From a phage, in sequence record PQ478073.1: 64,000 bases of DNA. One strand, written 5' to 3'. Below, piece by piece: positions 9,116 to 58,559 of the stretch. Below the pieces are notes generated by a model, which saw nothing but the letters and a program-made list of their open reading frames with translations, was not told where the DNA came from and did not search any database. The position numbers were made by a program, and so were the translations under genes. Within the stretch, counting starts at the first letter, position 1, and the number at the start of each line of letters is the position of its first letter.

Positions 9116-9430
9116 TTAGCCTATGTTTCGAGTACCATTAAGATAATTCTGTACTCTTTGATTTGCTGGTATTCTAATTGTTACTCCACTTTTAAAATTA
9201 TATATAGGATCTTCTCCTAGTATGTCTGGATTTAACAATGCGAAAATATAATATAAGCGTTCATTACCATACATTTCGTATGCTAAACGCCAAGGTTGAT
9301 ATTCATATTTCAATGGGATCTCATAAAAATCATCAGTATCAGCCGGAACAATATCACGTGGTAAATTATACCCAAGATACCATGTTTGTTTCACCTTAGC
9401 GTAAGGTGAGTATTGACTATAGTTGGACAT
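9116..9430 (-). CDS. LysM-like baseplate protein (gp53/gpX-like)
   Basis: 104 aa; ERLYYIFALLNPDI...GVTIRIP resembles LysM fold pattern; start overlaps upstream gene stop. Confidence 0.4.
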   Translation of the reverse strand: MSNYSQYSPYAKVKQTWYLGYNLPRDIVPADTDDFYEIPLKYEYQPWRLAYEMYGNERLYYIFALLNPDILGEDPIYNFKSGVTIRIPANQRVQNYLNGTRNIG

Positions 9431-10251
9431 TAAATGAATCCTCCTTTACGTAATAGTTCACCACGTTTGAATGCATTGAGGTTGAACGTTTTAGTCATAT
9501 AATCCGATGTTGGTTGTTCTTCAAGTTGTAACATAACTGAGATTTTTTGTGGAACCCAAACTTCATCTTGTGGGTTCATATATCCAGTACTTCTAAGTTG
9601 TTCGAAGAATTTTCTACTATCCATGTCGGATAAATTAAAAGTACTATCGCTACTATTCAACGGAACTTGAATATAAGAAACATCATTTGGGTAAGTAAAA
9701 TTATAAGATTTTAAAATAACAGGAATATCATTATATGTATAACGACCATATCCACTTAGAAGTAAGATTGGTGGTGGTGCACCTGCAATTGCGAGTTCGG
9801 GGTTATTAGCCGAAGCAGCTTGTCTACCAAAATCCATCAACGAAACAGAACGTATAAAATGAACACATGCCAACGCATACATAGCTTCTGCTGCTGTATT
9901 CGCATAAAATTCACCCTGAATCGTGAAAACTGTATTAGTAGTGTTCTTATAGTTGTTATAGTTACTGTTAGTATGTATAGGGGACTGTGTTTCATACTGA
10001 ATTGACCTTTGTTCAGTAATTGTTGGTGTTACAGTCCAAACCAACCCATTAGTTGGACGCAGAAACGAAAGTAGAGTTGGTTCGGAGCTATCTCCAAAAT
10101 CACCATATACATAGTTAGCACCTGCGGCTTTAGGTCGTAATCGAATTCTACGATCAATCATCTTTTTGATTCTCCATAATAAGGGAACATTTGATGTATT
10201 TATACGTGGGACAAACTGCTTTTTGGTGCTATAATAACATTGATGGTACAA
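9430..10251 (-). CDS. hypothetical baseplate/tail protein
   Basis: 273-aa ORF at head of minus-strand baseplate operon; true start may be an internal Met. Confidence 0.45.
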   Translation of the reverse strand: MYHQCYYSTKKQFVPRINTSNVPLLWRIKKMIDRRIRLRPKAAGANYVYGDFGDSSEPTLLSFLRPTNGLVWTVTPTITEQRSIQYETQSPIHTNSNYNNYKNTTNTVFTIQGEFYANTAAEAMYALACVHFIRSVSLMDFGRQAASANNPELAIAGAPPPILLLSGYGRYTYNDIPVILKSYNFTYPNDVSYIQVPLNSSDSTFNLSDMDSRKFFEQLRSTGYMNPQDEVWVPQKISVMLQLEEQPTSDYMTKTFNLNAFKRGELLRKGGFI

Positions 10252-14314: not shown

Positions 14315-14341
14315 AAAGGGAGCCTTAGCTCCCTTTTTTTA
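14315..14341. terminator. bidirectional intrinsic terminator between convergent genes
   Basis: AAAGGGAGC-ctta-GCTCCCTTT then TTTTTTT; stop codon of minus-strand gene lies in the loop. Confidence 0.6.
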
Positions 14342-14816
14342 TATCAACCATATTTAATTTACCGTCCTTAATCAGCTTTCTAGCTTGCTTTACACGAGCA
14401 GTAGTGTTACTACCAGGGACAACTCCTAACCCTTCCAGAATCGCGTTTTGCTGTGTTGCTGGAAGCCTTTTAAACTTATTAACATCCACAGTTAGTGCAG
14501 TGTGATGTATAACTTGTTCATCGTCAGGAATGCTGTTATTACGCTCTAAGTAATCAGCAAGATTTCTGAGTACCTCATATAATGGTTTATCAGTTAAGTG
14601 CTTCATATATCGATTGAAGCTGTTTTGTACCTTTCCTTCCCAAGCATTGACTTCATTTTGAAGAACTTGTCTACAATGTTGGTTACCATAGTGGTAGTGA
14701 TCCAGTACTGGTTTAGTTATTGGTTCTTTAATTATAGGATCTATTCCATTTTGTTTCTTTAGCAATTCGTTTCGATAGTTTGCAGCATCCTTACTATCTT
14801 TTAATCTTTTTTTCAT
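14325..14816 (-). CDS. endonuclease VII-like His-Me finger nuclease (gp49-like), zinc ligands absent
   Basis: LDHYHY...NEVNAWEGK...FNR aligns with recalled T4 EndoVII HLDHDHE...CNAAEGQ...FNR; TATAAATA late box 30 nt upstream on minus strand. Confidence 0.45.
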   Translation of the reverse strand: MKKRLKDSKDAANYRNELLKKQNGIDPIIKEPITKPVLDHYHYGNQHCRQVLQNEVNAWEGKVQNSFNRYMKHLTDKPLYEVLRNLADYLERNNSIPDDEQVIHHTALTVDVNKFKRLPATQQNAILEGLGVVPGSNTTARVKQARKLIKDGKLNMVDIKKGS

Positions 14817-14846
14817 AATTCCTCACCAAACTATTTGTTATCAAAA

Positions 14847-14854
14847 TATTTATA
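14847..14854 (-). promoter_or_regulatory. late promoter box TATAAATA (EndoVII-like gene)
   Basis: Exact TATAAATA on minus strand 30 nt upstream of ATG at 14816. Confidence 0.5.
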
Positions 14855-14907
14855 GATTAGTTATTTGCAATATTTTAAGTACTTAATGAATATTTTTATA
14901 AAAATAG

Positions 14908-14936
14908 TGAGACAACTTTAAAGTTTGTGCTATAAT
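14908..14936 (+). promoter_or_regulatory. early/middle promoter, tGAGACA-N17-TGcTATAAT family
   Basis: TGAGAC, 17-bp spacer, extended -10 TGCTATAAT. Confidence 0.5.
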
Positions 14937-14942
14937 GTTTGT

Positions 14943-15397
14943 TGTAGTAATGACAATCCTGTTGAATGCAGAAATGCATATAAATTAGAACCTGATCCTA
15001 TCGAAAATGTAGATGGCAGATGAGCAGTTCAACAGTGCGATGAGCAAAAGAAACCCGTTAGATGTGGGCATAGTTTGAACCCCTCACGGCAATGCGGCTC
15101 AATAAAGAACTCCGATAAGCATACAGAGAGTTCCTAGATAGACATATAAGGATCGCACCTTACCAGATTTGCTAAGGGAGTTTATTAAGTGATTTTAATA
15201 AACAGCCTGAAGTTTGATTGTATAGACTTTCAGGTGAGTGTCAGGATGATTAAGACTGACGACCGTTGCACATGACTGCGATAGAGAGAAACAGAGCAAC
15301 CCGCTTTCGTTCTTAATATATTTTTAAGAAATTCGCAATACAATAAATGCTGAAACCATCAGCGTCAAGAAATAGAGACTTCATTGTCTCTTTTTTA
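14943..15397 (+). ncRNA. candidate structured non-coding RNA, family unknown
   Basis: Promoter 14908-14936 and intrinsic terminator 15374-15397 bracket ~455 nt with no ORF >=60 aa, elevated GC and several hairpins. Confidence 0.4.
15374..15397 (+). terminator. intrinsic terminator of candidate ncRNA
   Basis: AGAGAC-ttcatt-GTCTCT followed by TTTTTTATT. Confidence 0.6.
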
Positions 15398-15490
15398 TTG
15401 TCTTCATTCCCCTGCGGGGGGATGAAAATGTCCTCAACAAATCCCGTCAAGTATTAAATCTTTTAAAGTTCTTTATAATTAATTTAATTA

Positions 15491-15550
15491 AATGAATATG
15501 AGTTACGTAGTAACGAATATTCTTCAGCTAACGAATGAAATGAGTTAGAT
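15491..15550. repeat. AT-rich direct/inverted repeat cluster
   Basis: AATGAATATGAGTTA ... TAACGAAT ... TAACGAAT ... AAATGAGTTA; GTTAC-gta-GTAAC palindrome. Confidence 0.4.
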
Positions 15551-15615
15551 GAATCCAATAATATTAAAATTAATCCTTTCATAATTCAATTCAAATAATT
15601 CTGTAGTTTAAAACC

Positions 15616-15641
15616 AAAAAAAACCAGCAACAATGTGCTGG
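15616..15641 (-). terminator. intrinsic terminator
   Basis: CCAGCA-cattgt-TGCTGG hairpin followed by T8 on minus strand, after 15653 gene. Confidence 0.55.
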
Positions 15642-15652
15642 CTATATGAAAA

Positions 15653-15862
15653 TTAGTGCTTCTCGTTTTGTTTTTTAATTTTTTTATTAAAAGACTTAAC
15701 TAATAAGTCTCTATCTATTAATGGCATATTAAGGAGTGTTCCATAGTCAATGTTATCCATATATACAGAACATTCCATTAGTGCATTTTTGATTTCTGAC
15801 TTATTCAGTTCTATCTCCTTCAGTACTTCTTGTATTTCTTCAGGAGATGACTGGAGAAGCAT
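15653..15862 (-). CDS. hypothetical protein
   Basis: 69-aa ORF; start overlaps stop of upstream gene at 15862; minus-strand terminator follows. Confidence 0.5.
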   Translation of the reverse strand: MLLQSSPEEIQEVLKEIELNKSEIKNALMECSVYMDNIDYGTLLNMPLIDRDLLVKSFNKKIKKQNEKH

Positions 15863-16828: not shown

Positions 16829-19033
16829 ATGGCTGGAAATACAAGTGATTACCTACTCCAGCAGTTGGTTAATCAAACTAAAGATAACAACGATAGTTTG
16901 AGTGCTATACGTGAGTTATTGGCTGAAAATATAAAAAATGATAGAAAGAAATCCGGTTCTAAAAGTGGAAAACGTAATGGAAGTAATTCATCAAGTTCTG
17001 GAAACCGTGGCTCTCGAACAAATAACAAAGCTGATGATGGTAAAGAATTTGGAAAAATATTCAAATCATTATCATCTGAAGTATCGAATGTCGGCAAAAC
17101 TATGATGAGTACGTCTGCAAACGTTAGCAATGTTGTAAACTCACTAGGAATGAGTGCATCTTCATTTGCTGGTTCATTAGCAATGATCCCAGGTCCAGTT
17201 GGTGCAGCAGCATCTGCATTCAAATTGGTTGCTGACGCTGGTTTAGCAGTTTATAATGTGTTAAATGCACAGCTTGAAGTTTATAATAGAATAAACAGTG
17301 CTGGTGTCGCTCTATCTGAAGGTTACGGCTCCATATTAAAAGGTGCTGGTGCATCAATGATGAGTATTGATGCATTTGGTGAAGCATTACAAACTCATAG
17401 TGCCGTTGTTGCACAATTAGATGGTGCATATGGTGATGGTGTTTCTACATTTGGTAAATTATTGGGTACTGTGCAACAAGCACAAAATCAATTAGGTTTA
17501 TATGGTGTTTCTCAAAAAACATTAACTGATTTAACTGCACGTAATATTAAATTCCAAAAGCAATTTGGTGGAAGAGAAATGTTACGTAGTATGGATCAAG
17601 CAAAAAGTACTGAACAGTTTATCATGAGTATGACTAAGTTCAGTAAAAGTATGGGTGAGTCAGTTGATGCACTATTAAATAAAACACAAAACTTAGATAA
17701 ATCATTAGACACACGTTCAATGCAAATCGCATTACAAAACTATTCTGGATTATCTAGTAAAGCAGCAGTTGCAACATCAAAAGCATTTAACGAAGCTGCT
17801 GCCAGTATGGGTGATGCTGGTGCAGATTTTCTACGTTTAATTTCACATCGTTTAACTATTGGTGGAGTACCAGATGATTTATTGACTCCAGTACTGAACC
17901 AATTTGCTGATTTAGGTGAGAACTTGGTACGTAGTGGTGTTACTGATTCACAAGAAATTCGCCGTCAACAATTGGAATTTGTTAAAAAGAACAAAGAACT
18001 AATAAAGCAAGATTTATTAAATCAGATACAATTAGGAAACACTACGGCAGCAACCTTCAACCAACAACTACTTGATATGGAAGCTGCGATTAATGATCCT
18101 AAGAGTCAACCAGCAGATAAACTAACACAATTCACTGATAGATTCAATAGATGGATTAGTAAAGAATTTACTGAACCATTTAATAAAATGTATGCAGATA
18201 CACAAAATTCTATTGCGGATTACCTTACTGATATTGCAGACCGTACTGATGGTGCATGGGAATTTATCGGAGAGTTAGCACTTGATGGTTTTGGTTTGGT
18301 TCCTATTGCGAAAGATGCAGTTGCGTATTTGGATAGGATTGGTGGTGAGTTTGAGCAGTGGTTAGAAGGGTTAGGTACTGAAATTTTTGGTAGTGGATAT
18401 AATAAAGTTTCAGAAGCATTTGATAGCTTTATGAATAACCTAATGGATCTTCCTGGTAAACTTTGGGATTCTGTTAAAGGTTGGTTTGGTGGATCAGACG
18501 ACAAAGTAAAAGTAGAAAACAATTCTGTTACCGATGGTGCAGAAAAAGTTAATAATTATTTTGAAGAAAAAATGAATTCATTTGGTGATTATATTTCTAG
18601 TTCATTTGATGGTTTTTTAAAATGGAATTCAAGTAGAAACTTTAAACAACCAAAACCCCTTGATGAATCAGTTGCTGAAAAACTTATTAGTAGTGGTCTT
18701 GAAAATAAGCCAAGAGCAACTGCGAGAATCGAAAAATCTGAACATGTTGCACCATATGTTACCATAACTCCAAAAACTTTTGATAAATCAGCATGGGGTC
18801 CAAATGAACCACCAATTCAAGCTGAACCGGACGATTATGAGGCCATGAAAGCGATGATAAATAGTGGTAGTAGTATGGCAAATGCTAATAATAATGCCAC
18901 AATATCAGAAGACATGAAAGAGTTACTTAAAAAACTTGCTGATGTTAATGAGCAATCTCTATCTGCCGTGCAACAGACAAATAACTATCTAAGAACTATC
19001 TCTGAAAACACTCAAGGTGAGAGAAACAGTTAA
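16829..19033 (+). CDS. virion structural protein (tape-measure-like or internal protein?)
   Basis: 734 aa; low-complexity S/G/N-rich N-terminus and Ala-rich helical segments; immediately precedes portal gene. Confidence 0.5.
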   Translation: MAGNTSDYLLQQLVNQTKDNNDSLSAIRELLAENIKNDRKKSGSKSGKRNGSNSSSSGNRGSRTNNKADDGKEFGKIFKSLSSEVSNVGKTMMSTSANVSNVVNSLGMSASSFAGSLAMIPGPVGAAASAFKLVADAGLAVYNVLNAQLEVYNRINSAGVALSEGYGSILKGAGASMMSIDAFGEALQTHSAVVAQLDGAYGDGVSTFGKLLGTVQQAQNQLGLYGVSQKTLTDLTARNIKFQKQFGGREMLRSMDQAKSTEQFIMSMTKFSKSMGESVDALLNKTQNLDKSLDTRSMQIALQNYSGLSSKAAVATSKAFNEAAASMGDAGADFLRLISHRLTIGGVPDDLLTPVLNQFADLGENLVRSGVTDSQEIRRQQLEFVKKNKELIKQDLLNQIQLGNTTAATFNQQLLDMEAAINDPKSQPADKLTQFTDRFNRWISKEFTEPFNKMYADTQNSIADYLTDIADRTDGAWEFIGELALDGFGLVPIAKDAVAYLDRIGGEFEQWLEGLGTEIFGSGYNKVSEAFDSFMNNLMDLPGKLWDSVKGWFGGSDDKVKVENNSVTDGAEKVNNYFEEKMNSFGDYISSSFDGFLKWNSSRNFKQPKPLDESVAEKLISSGLENKPRATARIEKSEHVAPYVTITPKTFDKSAWGPNEPPIQAEPDDYEAMKAMINSGSSMANANNNATISEDMKELLKKLADVNEQSLSAVQQTNNYLRTISENTQGERNS

Positions 19034-33208: not shown

Positions 33209-33238
33209 TGAGACAAGCATCATTTTTGAGATATAATG
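33209..33238 (+). promoter_or_regulatory. early/middle promoter, TGAGACA family
   Basis: TGAGAC-18-TATAAT upstream of 33302 gene. Confidence 0.45.
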
Positions 33239-36835: not shown

Positions 36836-42093
<5,258 letters not shown>

Positions 42094-42103
42094 TTAAAAA
42101 ATA

Positions 42104-42132
42104 TGGGACAGTATAAAAACCTGTGCTATAAT
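42104..42132 (+). promoter_or_regulatory. gp32 upstream promoter 2 (TGGGAC-17-TGcTATAAT)
   Basis: Extended -10 TGCTATAAT ~90 nt upstream of gp32 ATG. Confidence 0.45.
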
Positions 42133-51158: not shown

Positions 51159-52136
51159 ATGGCTCATCACGGCGTGTTTATGTACCCTTATAATCAGGAA
51201 GTATCATTGGGCAATTTTAATATGCCATATAGCAATGAAAAACTAACTATATATAGAGGGGCAAATAATAATTTATCTTTTACTGTTCACAACGCTGATG
51301 GAAAATATACTTTATTGAAAGATAATGAATATCTTACATTTATGATTTTTGATGCAAGAAATAATACTAAACTATTTGATGTTGTATTAGAAAAACAAGA
51401 ACCCAGTTGGTTATCAGAAAGTGGACAAGCAAGACAAACATTAGGAAATAAAAAGAAAGTATATTATGGATGTATTGTTCCAGCAGGAGTTATTCAAGAT
51501 ACCAGTCCTGGTTCAAAATATAGATGGAGCATTACTAAAGTAACAATGGATGGTTCACTTATAGAACCAACACAATATCTATACACAGGGATGAACTTTG
51601 AGGCATCAGCAGAGCTAATAATTTCAGACCAAGCAGCACCTGTATTTGTCCCCAGTACTGAAATATCAGTTAATAAAAATCCAGCATGGACAACTATAAA
51701 GCGTTTATATCATGAACCAATTGGAAATGGTATGATTGGTGAATATGATATTCTCGCATCAACTCCACTACCAGCACAAATGCAGTTTGGATTAGTAGAT
51801 GGATTAAGTAGTATTGCAATCTATTTTGATAAATTTATTGGTAGAATACAGCTACAAGGGTGCTTGTGTAACAACGTACCTAATGATAATGAAAACTATA
51901 AATGGTTTATTATTAAATTAGATGGAAAGGATTATATTGAAAATGGAATTGATTCAGAAGGTTTTCCAAAAGAACTTGACGGAATACAAGCATTTAATTT
52001 TAAAGGAAATTATATGTGGTTACGTTTGGTGGTTGCTATTCATCCCAAAATTGTTCCAGTACCATATGACTATGCTGCTGTCCGAAAAGTGTATGACCCT
52101 TTCCTAACAGTACCTAAAATTTTGATACGTAGATGA
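51159..52136 (+). CDS. hypothetical late protein
   Basis: GGAAGGA RBS; TATAAATT box at 51122-51129. Confidence 0.5.
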   Translation: MAHHGVFMYPYNQEVSLGNFNMPYSNEKLTIYRGANNNLSFTVHNADGKYTLLKDNEYLTFMIFDARNNTKLFDVVLEKQEPSWLSESGQARQTLGNKKKVYYGCIVPAGVIQDTSPGSKYRWSITKVTMDGSLIEPTQYLYTGMNFEASAELIISDQAAPVFVPSTEISVNKNPAWTTIKRLYHEPIGNGMIGEYDILASTPLPAQMQFGLVDGLSSIAIYFDKFIGRIQLQGCLCNNVPNDNENYKWFIIKLDGKDYIENGIDSEGFPKELDGIQAFNFKGNYMWLRLVVAIHPKIVPVPYDYAAVRKVYDPFLTVPKILIRR

Positions 52137-52162
52137 GACAAAACTAGAAGGTGTGCTATAAT
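52134..52162 (+). promoter_or_regulatory. early/middle promoter, TGAGACA family (primase)
   Basis: TGAGAC-17-TGCTATAAT; TGA doubles as stop codon of upstream gene. Confidence 0.5.
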
Positions 52163-58195: not shown

Positions 58196-58531
58196 ATGAG
58201 ATTTCGTGATCTTACTGAAGAGGCTCCTGGTAAAGATATACGCAATATGATTACTACTATTGCGTTGTCTTTAGTGTCCACGGGTCGAGAAGAAGTAAAT
58301 GTTCAATCTTTGATTTCTGAAATTAAAAAGAGAACCAACATCGATGTTCCATACAATGTAATGATGGACATTTTGAATTCCCTTCCTTTTGTACAGGATG
58401 CTAATTCTGATGTTGTAACTTTTGCAGGAAATTCAGCAGAAGGTTCAGAAGAAGTCGAGCAAGATTCTGAAGAGCAAGTTGAAGATTGGGCCACAAAAGC
58501 TGCTGTGACAGCAAATAAACAAAAAAACTGA
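58196..58531 (+). CDS. small hypothetical protein (weak AsiA-like pattern)
   Basis: 111 aa; RNMITTIALSLVSTGREEV resembles recalled AsiA REIITVASILIKFSREDIV; acidic C-tail. Confidence 0.4.
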   Translation: MRFRDLTEEAPGKDIRNMITTIALSLVSTGREEVNVQSLISEIKKRTNIDVPYNVMMDILNSLPFVQDANSDVVTFAGNSAEGSEEVEQDSEEQVEDWATKAAVTANKQKN

Positions 58532-58559
58532 GACAAATTAAAATATAATGCTATAATTA
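58530..58559 (+). promoter_or_regulatory. early/middle promoter, TGAGACA family
   Basis: TGAGAC-18-TGCTATAAT; TGA doubles as stop codon of upstream gene. Confidence 0.45.

Follow-up and report, generated by a model that had tools for sequence, protein, structure and literature searches.

What does a phage keep in the largest gene-free gap of a 64,000-nucleotide (nt) stretch of its DNA? The stretch (sequence record PQ478073.1; at its full length, the window) holds such a gap at positions 14817-15652, where a first-pass annotation made from the letters alone had placed a structured non-coding RNA with its own promoter and terminator, outside the known families. Covariation, the lack of open reading frames (ORFs) and Rfam searches support that proposal, and the locus almost certainly encodes a genuine, previously uncatalogued structured RNA. 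Comparison of homologous copies shows a stand-alone plus-strand gene for a large RNA (500-600 nt) with a predicted core of ~510 nt, whose three domains are locked by at least four pseudoknot or loop-strand helices. Judged by the sequence comparisons made here, the RNA represents a new class: Rfam 15 holds no homologue, and none turned up in the literature searched.

The phage of the window is an Asteriusvirus (PBECO4/121Q-like), one of the Rak2-like phages, and its relatives have genomes of ~350 kilobases (kb). Region 14817-15652 shares 99.4-100% identity with the Escherichia jumbo phages PBECO4, phAPEC6, 121Q and G17; in the PBECO4 record, minus strand 304727-305562 corresponds to the plus strand of the window here. 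In G17 the gap is flanked by minus-strand genes, endonuclease VII on one side and a small gene and the baseplate hub gene on the other, and nothing in it is annotated except a minus-strand terminator. No ORF of at least 60 amino acids (aa) overlaps the region on either strand. It ranks third among the ORF-free stretches of a mechanical ORF scan of the window, and both larger stretches touch a window edge, where ORFs that cross the edge go unscored, so the region is the largest true ORF-free gap, as the first-pass annotation had it. One of the two (762-2617, 1.86 kb) is an artefact of a baseplate wedge subunit gene crossing the edge, annotated as such in 121Q, phAPEC6 and G17; the other adjoins the 3' end of the window. 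The 40-50% G+C content (GC) that had been counted by hand between promoter and terminator was too high: the computed value is 0.37-0.415 over 14900-15400, against 0.235-0.28 in the immediate flanks.

Covariation and architecture of the RNA

The structure model comprises 20 helices and 96 pairs and was built by searching all column pairs in an alignment of 43 distinct copies for covarying antiparallel runs. Two controls were used, 500 shuffles and the sliding of pairing partners by 1-3 columns. The structure was derived from the same alignment that supplies the pair counts, and both controls lie far lower: standard pairs fill 94.5% of 3780 cells (75.0 +/- 0.4% when shuffled, 38-43% when slid), 729 cells are compensatory (207 shuffled, not above 103 slid) and the covariation score is 0.49 (0.175 shuffled, below 0.1 slid). 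Compensatory changes affect 72 of the 96 pairs on both sides (55 shuffled, 26-36 slid), which supplies the conserved secondary structure that the first-pass annotation had suggested looking for among homologues. None of the 500 shuffles reached any observed value. An earlier RNAalifold analysis of 18 copies had given compensatory change in 48 of 84 pairs. Paired cells hold G-U or U-G 311 times and A-C or C-A 55 times, an excess which indicates that the plus-strand transcript is what folds. Across the 43 copies 78 columns are invariant, paired and unpaired together, and many of the invariant nucleotides are unpaired.

Delimited by nhmmer, covariation and folding, the core runs on the plus strand from the inferred start to a conserved AAAUCCCGUCA (14943-15455). 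The nhmmer match in the window covers 14952-15450 (E = 2.7e-134). The minimum free energy of the 513-nt RNA is -136.4 kcal/mol, compared with -112.9 +/- 6.3 for shuffled sequences (z = -3.73).

The 5' pseudoknot domain (14959-15038, plus strand) comprises helices 1-5, in which 16 of 21 pairs change on both sides. Its pseudoknot joins 14959-14965 to 15029-15035, the latter lying in the loop of the hairpin 15024-15026/15036-15038, and encloses the hairpins 14966-14979 and 14992-15019; the loop of the second, GAAAAUGUAG, is conserved. The middle domain (15041-15145, plus strand; helices 6-10) is framed by a helix, 15041-15045/15097-15101, that encloses CCGU/ACGG at 15055-15058/15086-15089. A pseudoknot joins AUG at 15092-15094 to CAU at 15143-15145, with the hairpin 15107-15111/15129-15133 between them; in 10 copies its strands have become AUA/UAU, and in PBECO4 copy B they read ACA/UGU.

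Helices 12-18 make up the 3' core domain (15206-15344, plus strand). The loop of its first hairpin, 15206-15234, pairs across a distance: AUUGUAU at 15217-15223 meets AUACAAU at 15338-15344, an interaction of 6-7 base pairs (bp) that exists in ten matched sequence versions in the family. The domain also includes the hairpin 15239-15262 and a three-way junction of helices 15277-15281/15333-15337, 15284-15288/15304-15308 and 15310-15330. A further pseudoknot pairs GUUGC at 15265-15269 with GCAAC at 15296-15300; GCAAC lies inside the loop of the GAGAG/CUUUC hairpin, an otherwise invariant helix in which RaK2 compensates three pairs to give AGGGG/CCUCU. A covariance model of the three-way junction domain (R1) scores 95 bits at 15237-15345 and also recovers the PBECO4 paralogues and both of the chromosomal island copies described below.

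Three hairpins picked out in the first-pass annotation (14966-14979, 15206-15234 and 15240-15260) return as covarying helices 2, 12 and 14. Its direct repeat of GATGAGCA fared less well: the two units are present in the window copy but are not conserved, the second reading CGAAGUGC in most copies. An optional hairpin, whose stem is of the AAAAUUU type and whose 11-nt loop is conserved as AAUAUAGAUCC or AAGAAAGUUGC, can be inserted in two peripheral helices, and family members differ in whether both, one or none of these has it (PBECO4 copy B at ~38030-38060 and ~38180-38215 of L002; columns ~330-375 and ~505-540 of alignment A2); the window copy has none. From its placement it looks like a swappable docking or protein-binding module.

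Searches against known RNAs returned nothing. The 4227 covariance models of Rfam 15, which include group I and II introns, RNase P, tmRNA, 6S, SRP, GOLLD, ROOL, OLE, HEARO, raiA, pRNA, riboswitches and self-cleaving ribozymes, gave no match at gathering thresholds in the whole window. At E up to 10, the interval 14700-15800 drew only chance-level matches to terminator-like small RNAs, none inside the core, and at E up to 5 none fell in the core of 11 homologous loci. The earlier failure to place the RNA in a known family or to find a tRNA therefore stands, ARAGORN having detected no tRNA or tmRNA gene in the window or in 57 related loci. Literature on phAPEC6, RaK2, jumbo-phage non-coding RNAs, Asteriusvirus transcriptomes, structured-RNA screens, Sharanji and GOLLD/ROOL yielded no description of it, with the limit that the 10,006 anonymous candidates of PMC10690425 are not comparable by sequence. 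Look-alikes of a hammerhead, of the RNase P CR-V element and of an anti-Shine-Dalgarno sequence (CAGAUGAG...CGAA; ACAGAGCAACCCGCUUU; GGAUCGCACCUUA) were rejected, since their defining positions vary or sit in other covarying helices. A riboswitch or attenuator was likewise set aside: no competing covarying pairing for the terminator appeared, and the window copy has no same-strand gene downstream.

Promoter, terminator and extent of the element

The promoter proposed earlier at 14908-14936 (plus strand) is recovered by a consensus scan and consists of TGAGAC as a -35-like element, a 17-nt spacer and a TG-extended -10, TGCTATAAT; we infer that transcription of the RNA starts at about 14943. In the scan the -35 element can be taken as GTGAGA or GAGACA (14907 or 14909 as the first position), with spacers of 16-18 nt. 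The motif TGRRAC-N17-TATAAT occurs 7 times in the window where 0.17 would be expected by chance, so the promoter family of the first-pass annotation is real. The seven sites are 9365-9393 (minus strand), 10207-10235, 14908-14936, 33209-33237, 42104-42132, 52134-52162 and 58529-58557; TG usually precedes the -10, and one of the seven drives the RNA. Ahead of about 50 distinct family members, island copies included, the consensus reads TG(R)(R)AC-N17-(TGTG)nTATAAT, and nearly all of them have it. The class resembles the second promoter class of phage CBB, with -35 TGAAACG, which is reported to lie ahead of DNA-synthesis genes (PMC5259590).

An intrinsic terminator at 15374-15397 (plus strand), also proposed earlier and found again by scan, has a 6-bp stem (15374-15391), a 6-nt loop and a U-run (TTTTTT). 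The hairpin is present in 19 of the 43 aligned copies, with a covarying stem and six U in the run in all 19, and about ten further copies have, by eye, a differently formed hairpin followed by U8. About a third of copies overall lack a terminator; copies C and D of PBECO4 belong here, together with two further orthologue groups. No consistent covarying partner that would compete with the terminator stem was found in the 19 hairpin-bearing copies.

Conservation does not stop at this terminator. Downstream of it, at 15403-15449 (plus strand), all 43 copies have a hairpin, UUCAUUCCCC-UGC-GGGGGGAUGAA (15403-15426; helix 20), and then AAAUCCCGUCA (~15439-15449); in family form these are UUCAUYCCCC-UGY-GGGGGGAUGAA and AAAUCYCGUCA. 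Within the hairpin C varies with U opposite an invariant G, so that C-G alternates with U-G, a signature of plus-strand folding. Judged by this conservation, the RNA-like element extends past the terminator to about 15455. A further extension on the plus strand, 15450-15551, is tentative in the window copy and suggested by downstream conservation in most copies. In these, another 100-130 conserved nt hold a long hairpin interrupted by GAG/CGA internal loops and a terminal one; the terminal hairpin has the form GAC-NNNN-GNA-NNNN-GGC, was found in 30 of 44 copies and occurs with five versions of its complementary stem. In the window the extension would comprise an AT-rich stretch (15450-15496, counted at ~11% GC), one hairpin at 15494-15522 (GAAUAU-GA-GUUAC-GUA-GUAAC-GA-AUAUUC) and one at 15525-15551 that keeps the CUAAC/GUUAG stem with altered flanks and a larger loop, so that the conserved RNA possibly reaches about 15551. 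The ~455-nt length first assigned to the transcript thus needs revision: its promoter and terminator are real, but conserved RNA-like hairpins lie farther downstream and the terminator is missing from about a third of copies, and the promoter-to-terminator form is probably only one isoform.

The minus-strand signals that were said to bracket the interval are also there. A terminator found by scan and annotated in G17 (15622-15643, minus strand) belongs to the convergent genes (15862-15653 and the baseplate hub gene), and a T4-type late promoter read from the sequence, TATAAATA (14847-14854, minus strand), serves the divergent gene at 14816-14325 (minus strand), annotated as endonuclease VII in G17. 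The late promoter sits ~55 nt upstream of the RNA promoter, and its reverse complement GTATTTA is kept upstream of orthologous RNA copies in other genera, so this divergent arrangement of the two promoters is conserved. In many copies the conserved CGUCA is followed by GTATAAAT, GTATAATA or TAATAAAT, like the late promoter TATAAATA (window 15445-15460; A2 columns 668-690); the window copy has AGTATTAAAT. A late promoter at this place might start a separate transcript across the 3' hairpins.

Paralogues in phages and copies in chromosomal islands

A blastn search with the core (~14973-15458) matched 72 phage records at 67-100% identity, all of them Rak2-like jumbo phages, the host names being Escherichia, Klebsiella, Salmonella, Erwinia, Yersinia, Cronobacter, Pectobacterium, Serratia and Xanthomonas. 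Identity is 67-77% in the distant Rak2-like phages, and each record matches in 2-5 places. PBECO4 has three further copies (200 kb scanned), 70-85% identical and on the same strand, in gaps free of coding sequence at gp056/gp057, gp149/gp150 and gp355/sigma-factor gene gp356; its four copies lie ~56-110 kb apart around the 348-kb genome, on one strand. Two motif scans of IMG/VR gave 58 loci, several of them on metagenomic contigs of 355-371 kb; two pattern matches (L030 and L054) were rejected as chance by nhmmer and R1. Four copies were counted in each of 121Q, CBB and fHe-Yen9-04, five each in BF and GAP32, and two in RaK2. A profile hidden Markov model (HMM) made from 18 copies finds 63 (E 1e-143 to 1e-29), exactly one of them in the window.

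Clustering separates the copies into orthologue groups, each with one copy per genome, and the RaK2 copy lies upstream of the same genes as PBECO4 copy C (a hypothetical gene, a Dam methylase and a cytidyltransferase), so the paralogues are old and fixed in position. In ~40 of 52 distinct copies a same-strand ORF follows within 30-200 nt, and the last hairpin is often 10-40 nt from the ribosome-binding site. The window copy, its GAP32 and CBB orthologues and the copies of several metagenomic phages face a convergent gene instead. A conserved partner gene beside the RNA was considered and rejected: no homology was found among the neighbour proteins of the four PBECO4 copies, nor any homologue of the island membrane protein (below) in Rak2-like phages. 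Weak similarity does link PBECO4 gp150, upstream of copy C (L003:44223-45080), to the endonuclease VII at 14325-14816 (27% over 120 aa; E ~0.002-0.004 in a very small database), and it could be chance or go back to an ancient duplication that took in the flanking gene as well. The window itself is a mosaic relative to sequenced isolates. Its RNA region matches PBECO4 and phAPEC6 at 100% identity and 121Q at 99.9%; its baseplate-wedge region (700-2700 was compared) is 99.8% identical to 121Q, 96.3% to phAPEC6 and 96.2% to others among the matches listed, and PBECO4 is not among the 12 baseplate-wedge matches listed.

The RNA also occurs outside phages. A blastn search of 5426 complete E. coli genomes found it in two chromosomes, in an island beside ffs. 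In E. coli LR-29-1 (NZ_AP027515.1 3478976-3479514; L090:14959-15541) the copy is full length (HMM E = 9.5e-131) and fills an unannotated gap of a ~10-kb island adjoining ffs, whose genes encode a tyrosine integrase disrupted by IS3, a membrane protein, DUF4326, DUF488 and DuOB proteins and a resolvase. A scan of species-representative genomes gave 23 pattern matches, of which nhmmer confirms only L073, L084 and L088, the other 20 probably being chance; the three copies are in Silvania hatchlandensis (L073:7771-8282), Enterobacteriaceae bacterium RIT714 and a 2.8-kb contig of a metagenome-assembled genome. No RNA copies were found on plasmids.

The Silvania island adjoins a rimO-like gene and carries a large serine recombinase, a CI-like S24 repressor and, as cargo, a DarT-domain protein, a UvrD-like helicase and a 561-aa putative ADP-ribosylglycohydrolase (labelled by eye). 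It has the RNA, the membrane protein and the resolvase in common with the LR-29-1 island, and the integrases and defence-like cargo differ. Between the two the resolvases are 73% identical, the membrane proteins are distantly related (24% identity), and the membrane-protein gene lies downstream of the RNA on the same strand in both. The RNA unit is the only part that the islands share with the phages, 80.6% identical to the copy of Serratia phage BF that belongs to the orthologue group of the window; they have no replication genes and no phage sequence beyond the RNA unit and its promoter, which is of the phage type. Of the 96 pairs, 83-87 are retained in the island copies, and 8-20 compensatory differences separate these from the nearest phage copy. 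Together, the aligned copies show a predicted fold that is compact, under strong purifying selection and portable as a unit. One protein side observation concerns the LR-29-1 DUF4326 protein (L090:17996-18589), the sole island protein that matches the phage sequence compared: it has a 41%-identical homologue in the gp075 region of PBECO4 (L003:4607-4924) and in two metagenomic jumbo-phage loci.

Possible modes of action

What might such an RNA do? We lean, short of even confidence, towards an autonomous RNA product, a scaffold or catalyst that works independently of neighbouring genes. This is favoured because the fold has a globular complexity, no neighbour is conserved, the window copy stands in a gene-less context and the islands took the RNA alone. 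Complexity of this kind is typical of globular RNAs such as ribozymes and ribonucleoprotein scaffolds; large bacterial RNAs were reviewed by Harris and Breaker in 2018 (cited within PMC7567579). A rigid pseudoknotted scaffold would present invariant single-stranded segments (GAAAAnGUAG, CAGAUGAG, AUAAAG, GAUAGACAUAUAAGG, UAAGGGAG, CGACCGUUGC and GAGAAAC..ACCCGC) to a conserved partner, which could be a phage or host protein complex; alternatively the RNA would be a ribozyme-like catalyst. It would be made alongside replication-phase (middle) genes, with termination at the internal terminator giving a ~450-nt short form and read-through giving a longer form that includes the G-rich hairpin and the 3' hairpins.

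Several known RNAs are similar in kind to such a product. GOLLD and ROOL, which form RNA-only assemblies according to a cryo-electron microscopy preprint (10.1101/2024.12.08.627333), are likewise large (~500-650 nt), multi-domain, pseudoknot-rich and phage-carried, with no associated protein gene, a resemblance of kind and not of homology. The covarying loop-strand helix of the RNA described here could in principle form between molecules. However, its family has no Rfam match even at E up to 10, no tRNA gene beside it in 57 loci and 2-5 diverged paralogues per genome, and is seen only in Rak2-like enterobacterial jumbo phages and a few enterobacterial islands. The pRNA of phi29 is another phage-encoded structured RNA that looks essential and has covarying loop-loop complementarity, and the window copy lies 2.6 kb from the portal gene. 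Against this likeness, no Rfam pRNA match was found, the RNA is three times the size, packaging genes are not close to the other paralogues, and a loop sequence is sometimes common to paralogues of one genome; the loop pairing could be within or between molecules. Kissing-loop addressing, in which each paralogue would have its own loop sequence, was rejected: it holds in PBECO4, but the BF and CBB paralogues share sequence.

Non-coding transcripts in ORF-less gaps of lytic phage genomes are also known from PA5oct, a distant relative of the Rak2-like phages, whose ncRNA001 and ncRNA002 were defined by RNA sequencing (ncRNA002 is 451 nt and makes up 1.2-5% of phage reads; PMC7318152), and from ICP1, with a transcript of roughly 800 nt (PMC7567579). 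There is no homology to those of PA5oct: nhmmer gave no match in PA5oct 1-30000, the conserved family motifs are not present at its ncRNAs, and R1 produced chance matches only, at 18545 and 26570, away from ncRNA001 and ncRNA002.

Five points weigh against an autonomous product. No family member has a known transcript, partner or phenotype. The 2-5 paralogues are ~60-70% identical and each is fixed in position, with neither concerted evolution nor loss, which a purely trans-acting RNA explains poorly; nor does it explain the ~40 of 52 copies directly ahead of a same-strand gene, or the conserved RNA-like hairpins beyond a canonical intrinsic terminator. Island capture together with the promoter fits a cis-acting element at least as well.

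Two cis-acting readings are serious rivals, each of which we consider unlikely. In one, the element is a replication-origin unit: at the G-run/C-run hairpin and in the AT-rich stretch just after the core, the structured transcript would prime the leading strand or form an R-loop. The phage would thus have its 2-5 copies as dispersed origins, and the islands would have copied one to be replicated by an infecting phage and then perhaps packaged. The spacing of the four PBECO4 copies around the genome on a single strand, the fixed position of every paralogue, the phage-specific promoter class, reported in CBB ahead of DNA-synthesis genes, and the order of core, terminator, G6/C4 hairpin and 11%-GC stretch all suit an origin, as do islands that have only the RNA unit and its promoter from the phage and no replication genes. 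Precedents exist in ColE1 RNA II (a structured pre-primer of ~550 nt), in T4 oriF and oriG (a middle promoter and an unwinding element, with about five origins per genome) and in yeast mitochondrial ori/rep (7-8 homologous copies, each with a promoter and GC clusters). Like ColE1 RNA II and the T4 origins, the locus runs from a promoter through a ~500-nt structured transcript to a G-rich element and AT-rich DNA, and like the T4 origins the element has several dispersed copies per genome and a replication-phase promoter class. It differs in a tertiary structure that is far more elaborate and conserved, in a terminator that precedes the putative transition point and in that no antisense regulator was identified. 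Known primer RNAs need far less than four pseudoknots and dozens of unpaired nucleotides that never vary, and the efficient-looking terminator would free the RNA ahead of the supposed transition. No initiator sites or iterons were seen at the locus, and GC skew, considered as an origin signal, was rejected because it merely tracks gene strand. As for the AT-rich stretch, intergenic DNA here is AT-rich in general (0.235-0.28 GC).

In the other reading, to which we would assign a similarly low probability, the RNA is a cis-acting transcription element. While nascent it would allow read-through of its own and downstream terminators, in the manner of the put and EAR RNAs in processive antitermination, or it would stabilise or process the downstream messenger RNA (mRNA); in the islands, cargo genes would be switched on only upon infection by a phage that fires the RNA promoter. 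The same-strand ORF within 30-200 nt of ~40 of 52 copies, the fixed paralogue positions, the membrane-protein gene downstream in both islands, and a terminator after the core (19 of 43 copies, with ~10 more having a hairpin and U8 by eye) beyond which conservation continues all fit such an element. Like the HK022 put RNA and the EAR RNA, it is a structured RNA directly after a promoter and before a terminator and, in most copies, genes. Yet the RNA is 5-10 times larger than known antitermination RNAs, no homology to put or EAR was found, and the window copy has no downstream gene; that copy and its orthologues run into convergent genes and still keep the full architecture, and the island copies descend from this gene-less type. 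Further, no covarying pairing competes with the terminator, about a third of copies have none, and the RNA stands at only one of the seven promoters of its class in the window.

Readings that dispense with a functional RNA are effectively excluded, whether as a micro-ORF, a pseudogene or a DNA-only element. A decayed pseudogene or a DNA-level repeat (a mobile repeat or a cluster of protein-binding sites) would account for a dispersed multi-copy element in ORF-free gaps, but is highly improbable. An intact ORF, which the first-pass annotation had named as the sign of a decayed gene, is present at the locus in no relative, the 60-70%-identical copies having stop-free stretches of only ~40-80 codons, and this favours an RNA. 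The compensatory changes are strand-specific, with G-U far above A-C, which is unexpected of DNA-level sites; the copies are ancient and syntenic across genera, not recently mobile; and the alignments as read show no terminal inverted repeats or target duplications, although no specific search for these was made. Least probable of all is an mRNA for one or more micro-proteins, which the first-pass annotation had offered as its alternative: invariant AAGGGA resembles a ribosome-binding site and in the window a 28-codon GTG frame begins 8 nt after it, but 22 of 43 copies have no start codon in range, the peptides of the rest (4-56 codons) share no common sequence, and the region after AAGGGAG is a variable, indel-rich hairpin whose changes keep pairing and not frame.

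Few classes of bacterial or phage RNA combine this size with so intricate a fold, and such classes have historically proved to be ribozymes, ribonucleoprotein cores or, most recently, RNA-only assemblies. The family has unusually clean covariation behind it and is universal in the Rak2-like records examined (72 records, nine host-genus names). Its function is directly testable, since the phages and their hosts are open to culture and manipulation (E. coli with PBECO4, 121Q, phAPEC6 or G17), and the pattern of paralogues and the independent presence in islands provide two genetic handles. Should the RNA mark replication origins or a transcription switch, the logic of replication and regulation in 350-kb phages would become accessible; should it be a trans-acting scaffold or a ribozyme, a very short list would gain a new member. 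It is possible, though on present comparisons rather doubtful, that this is a new functional class of large RNA on which Rak2-like phages depend, as a catalyst, a self-assembling RNA or a component of replication or transcription start, and that defence islands have captured it with its promoter to sense, parasitise or sabotage phages, which would be an RNA-based conflict without described precedent.

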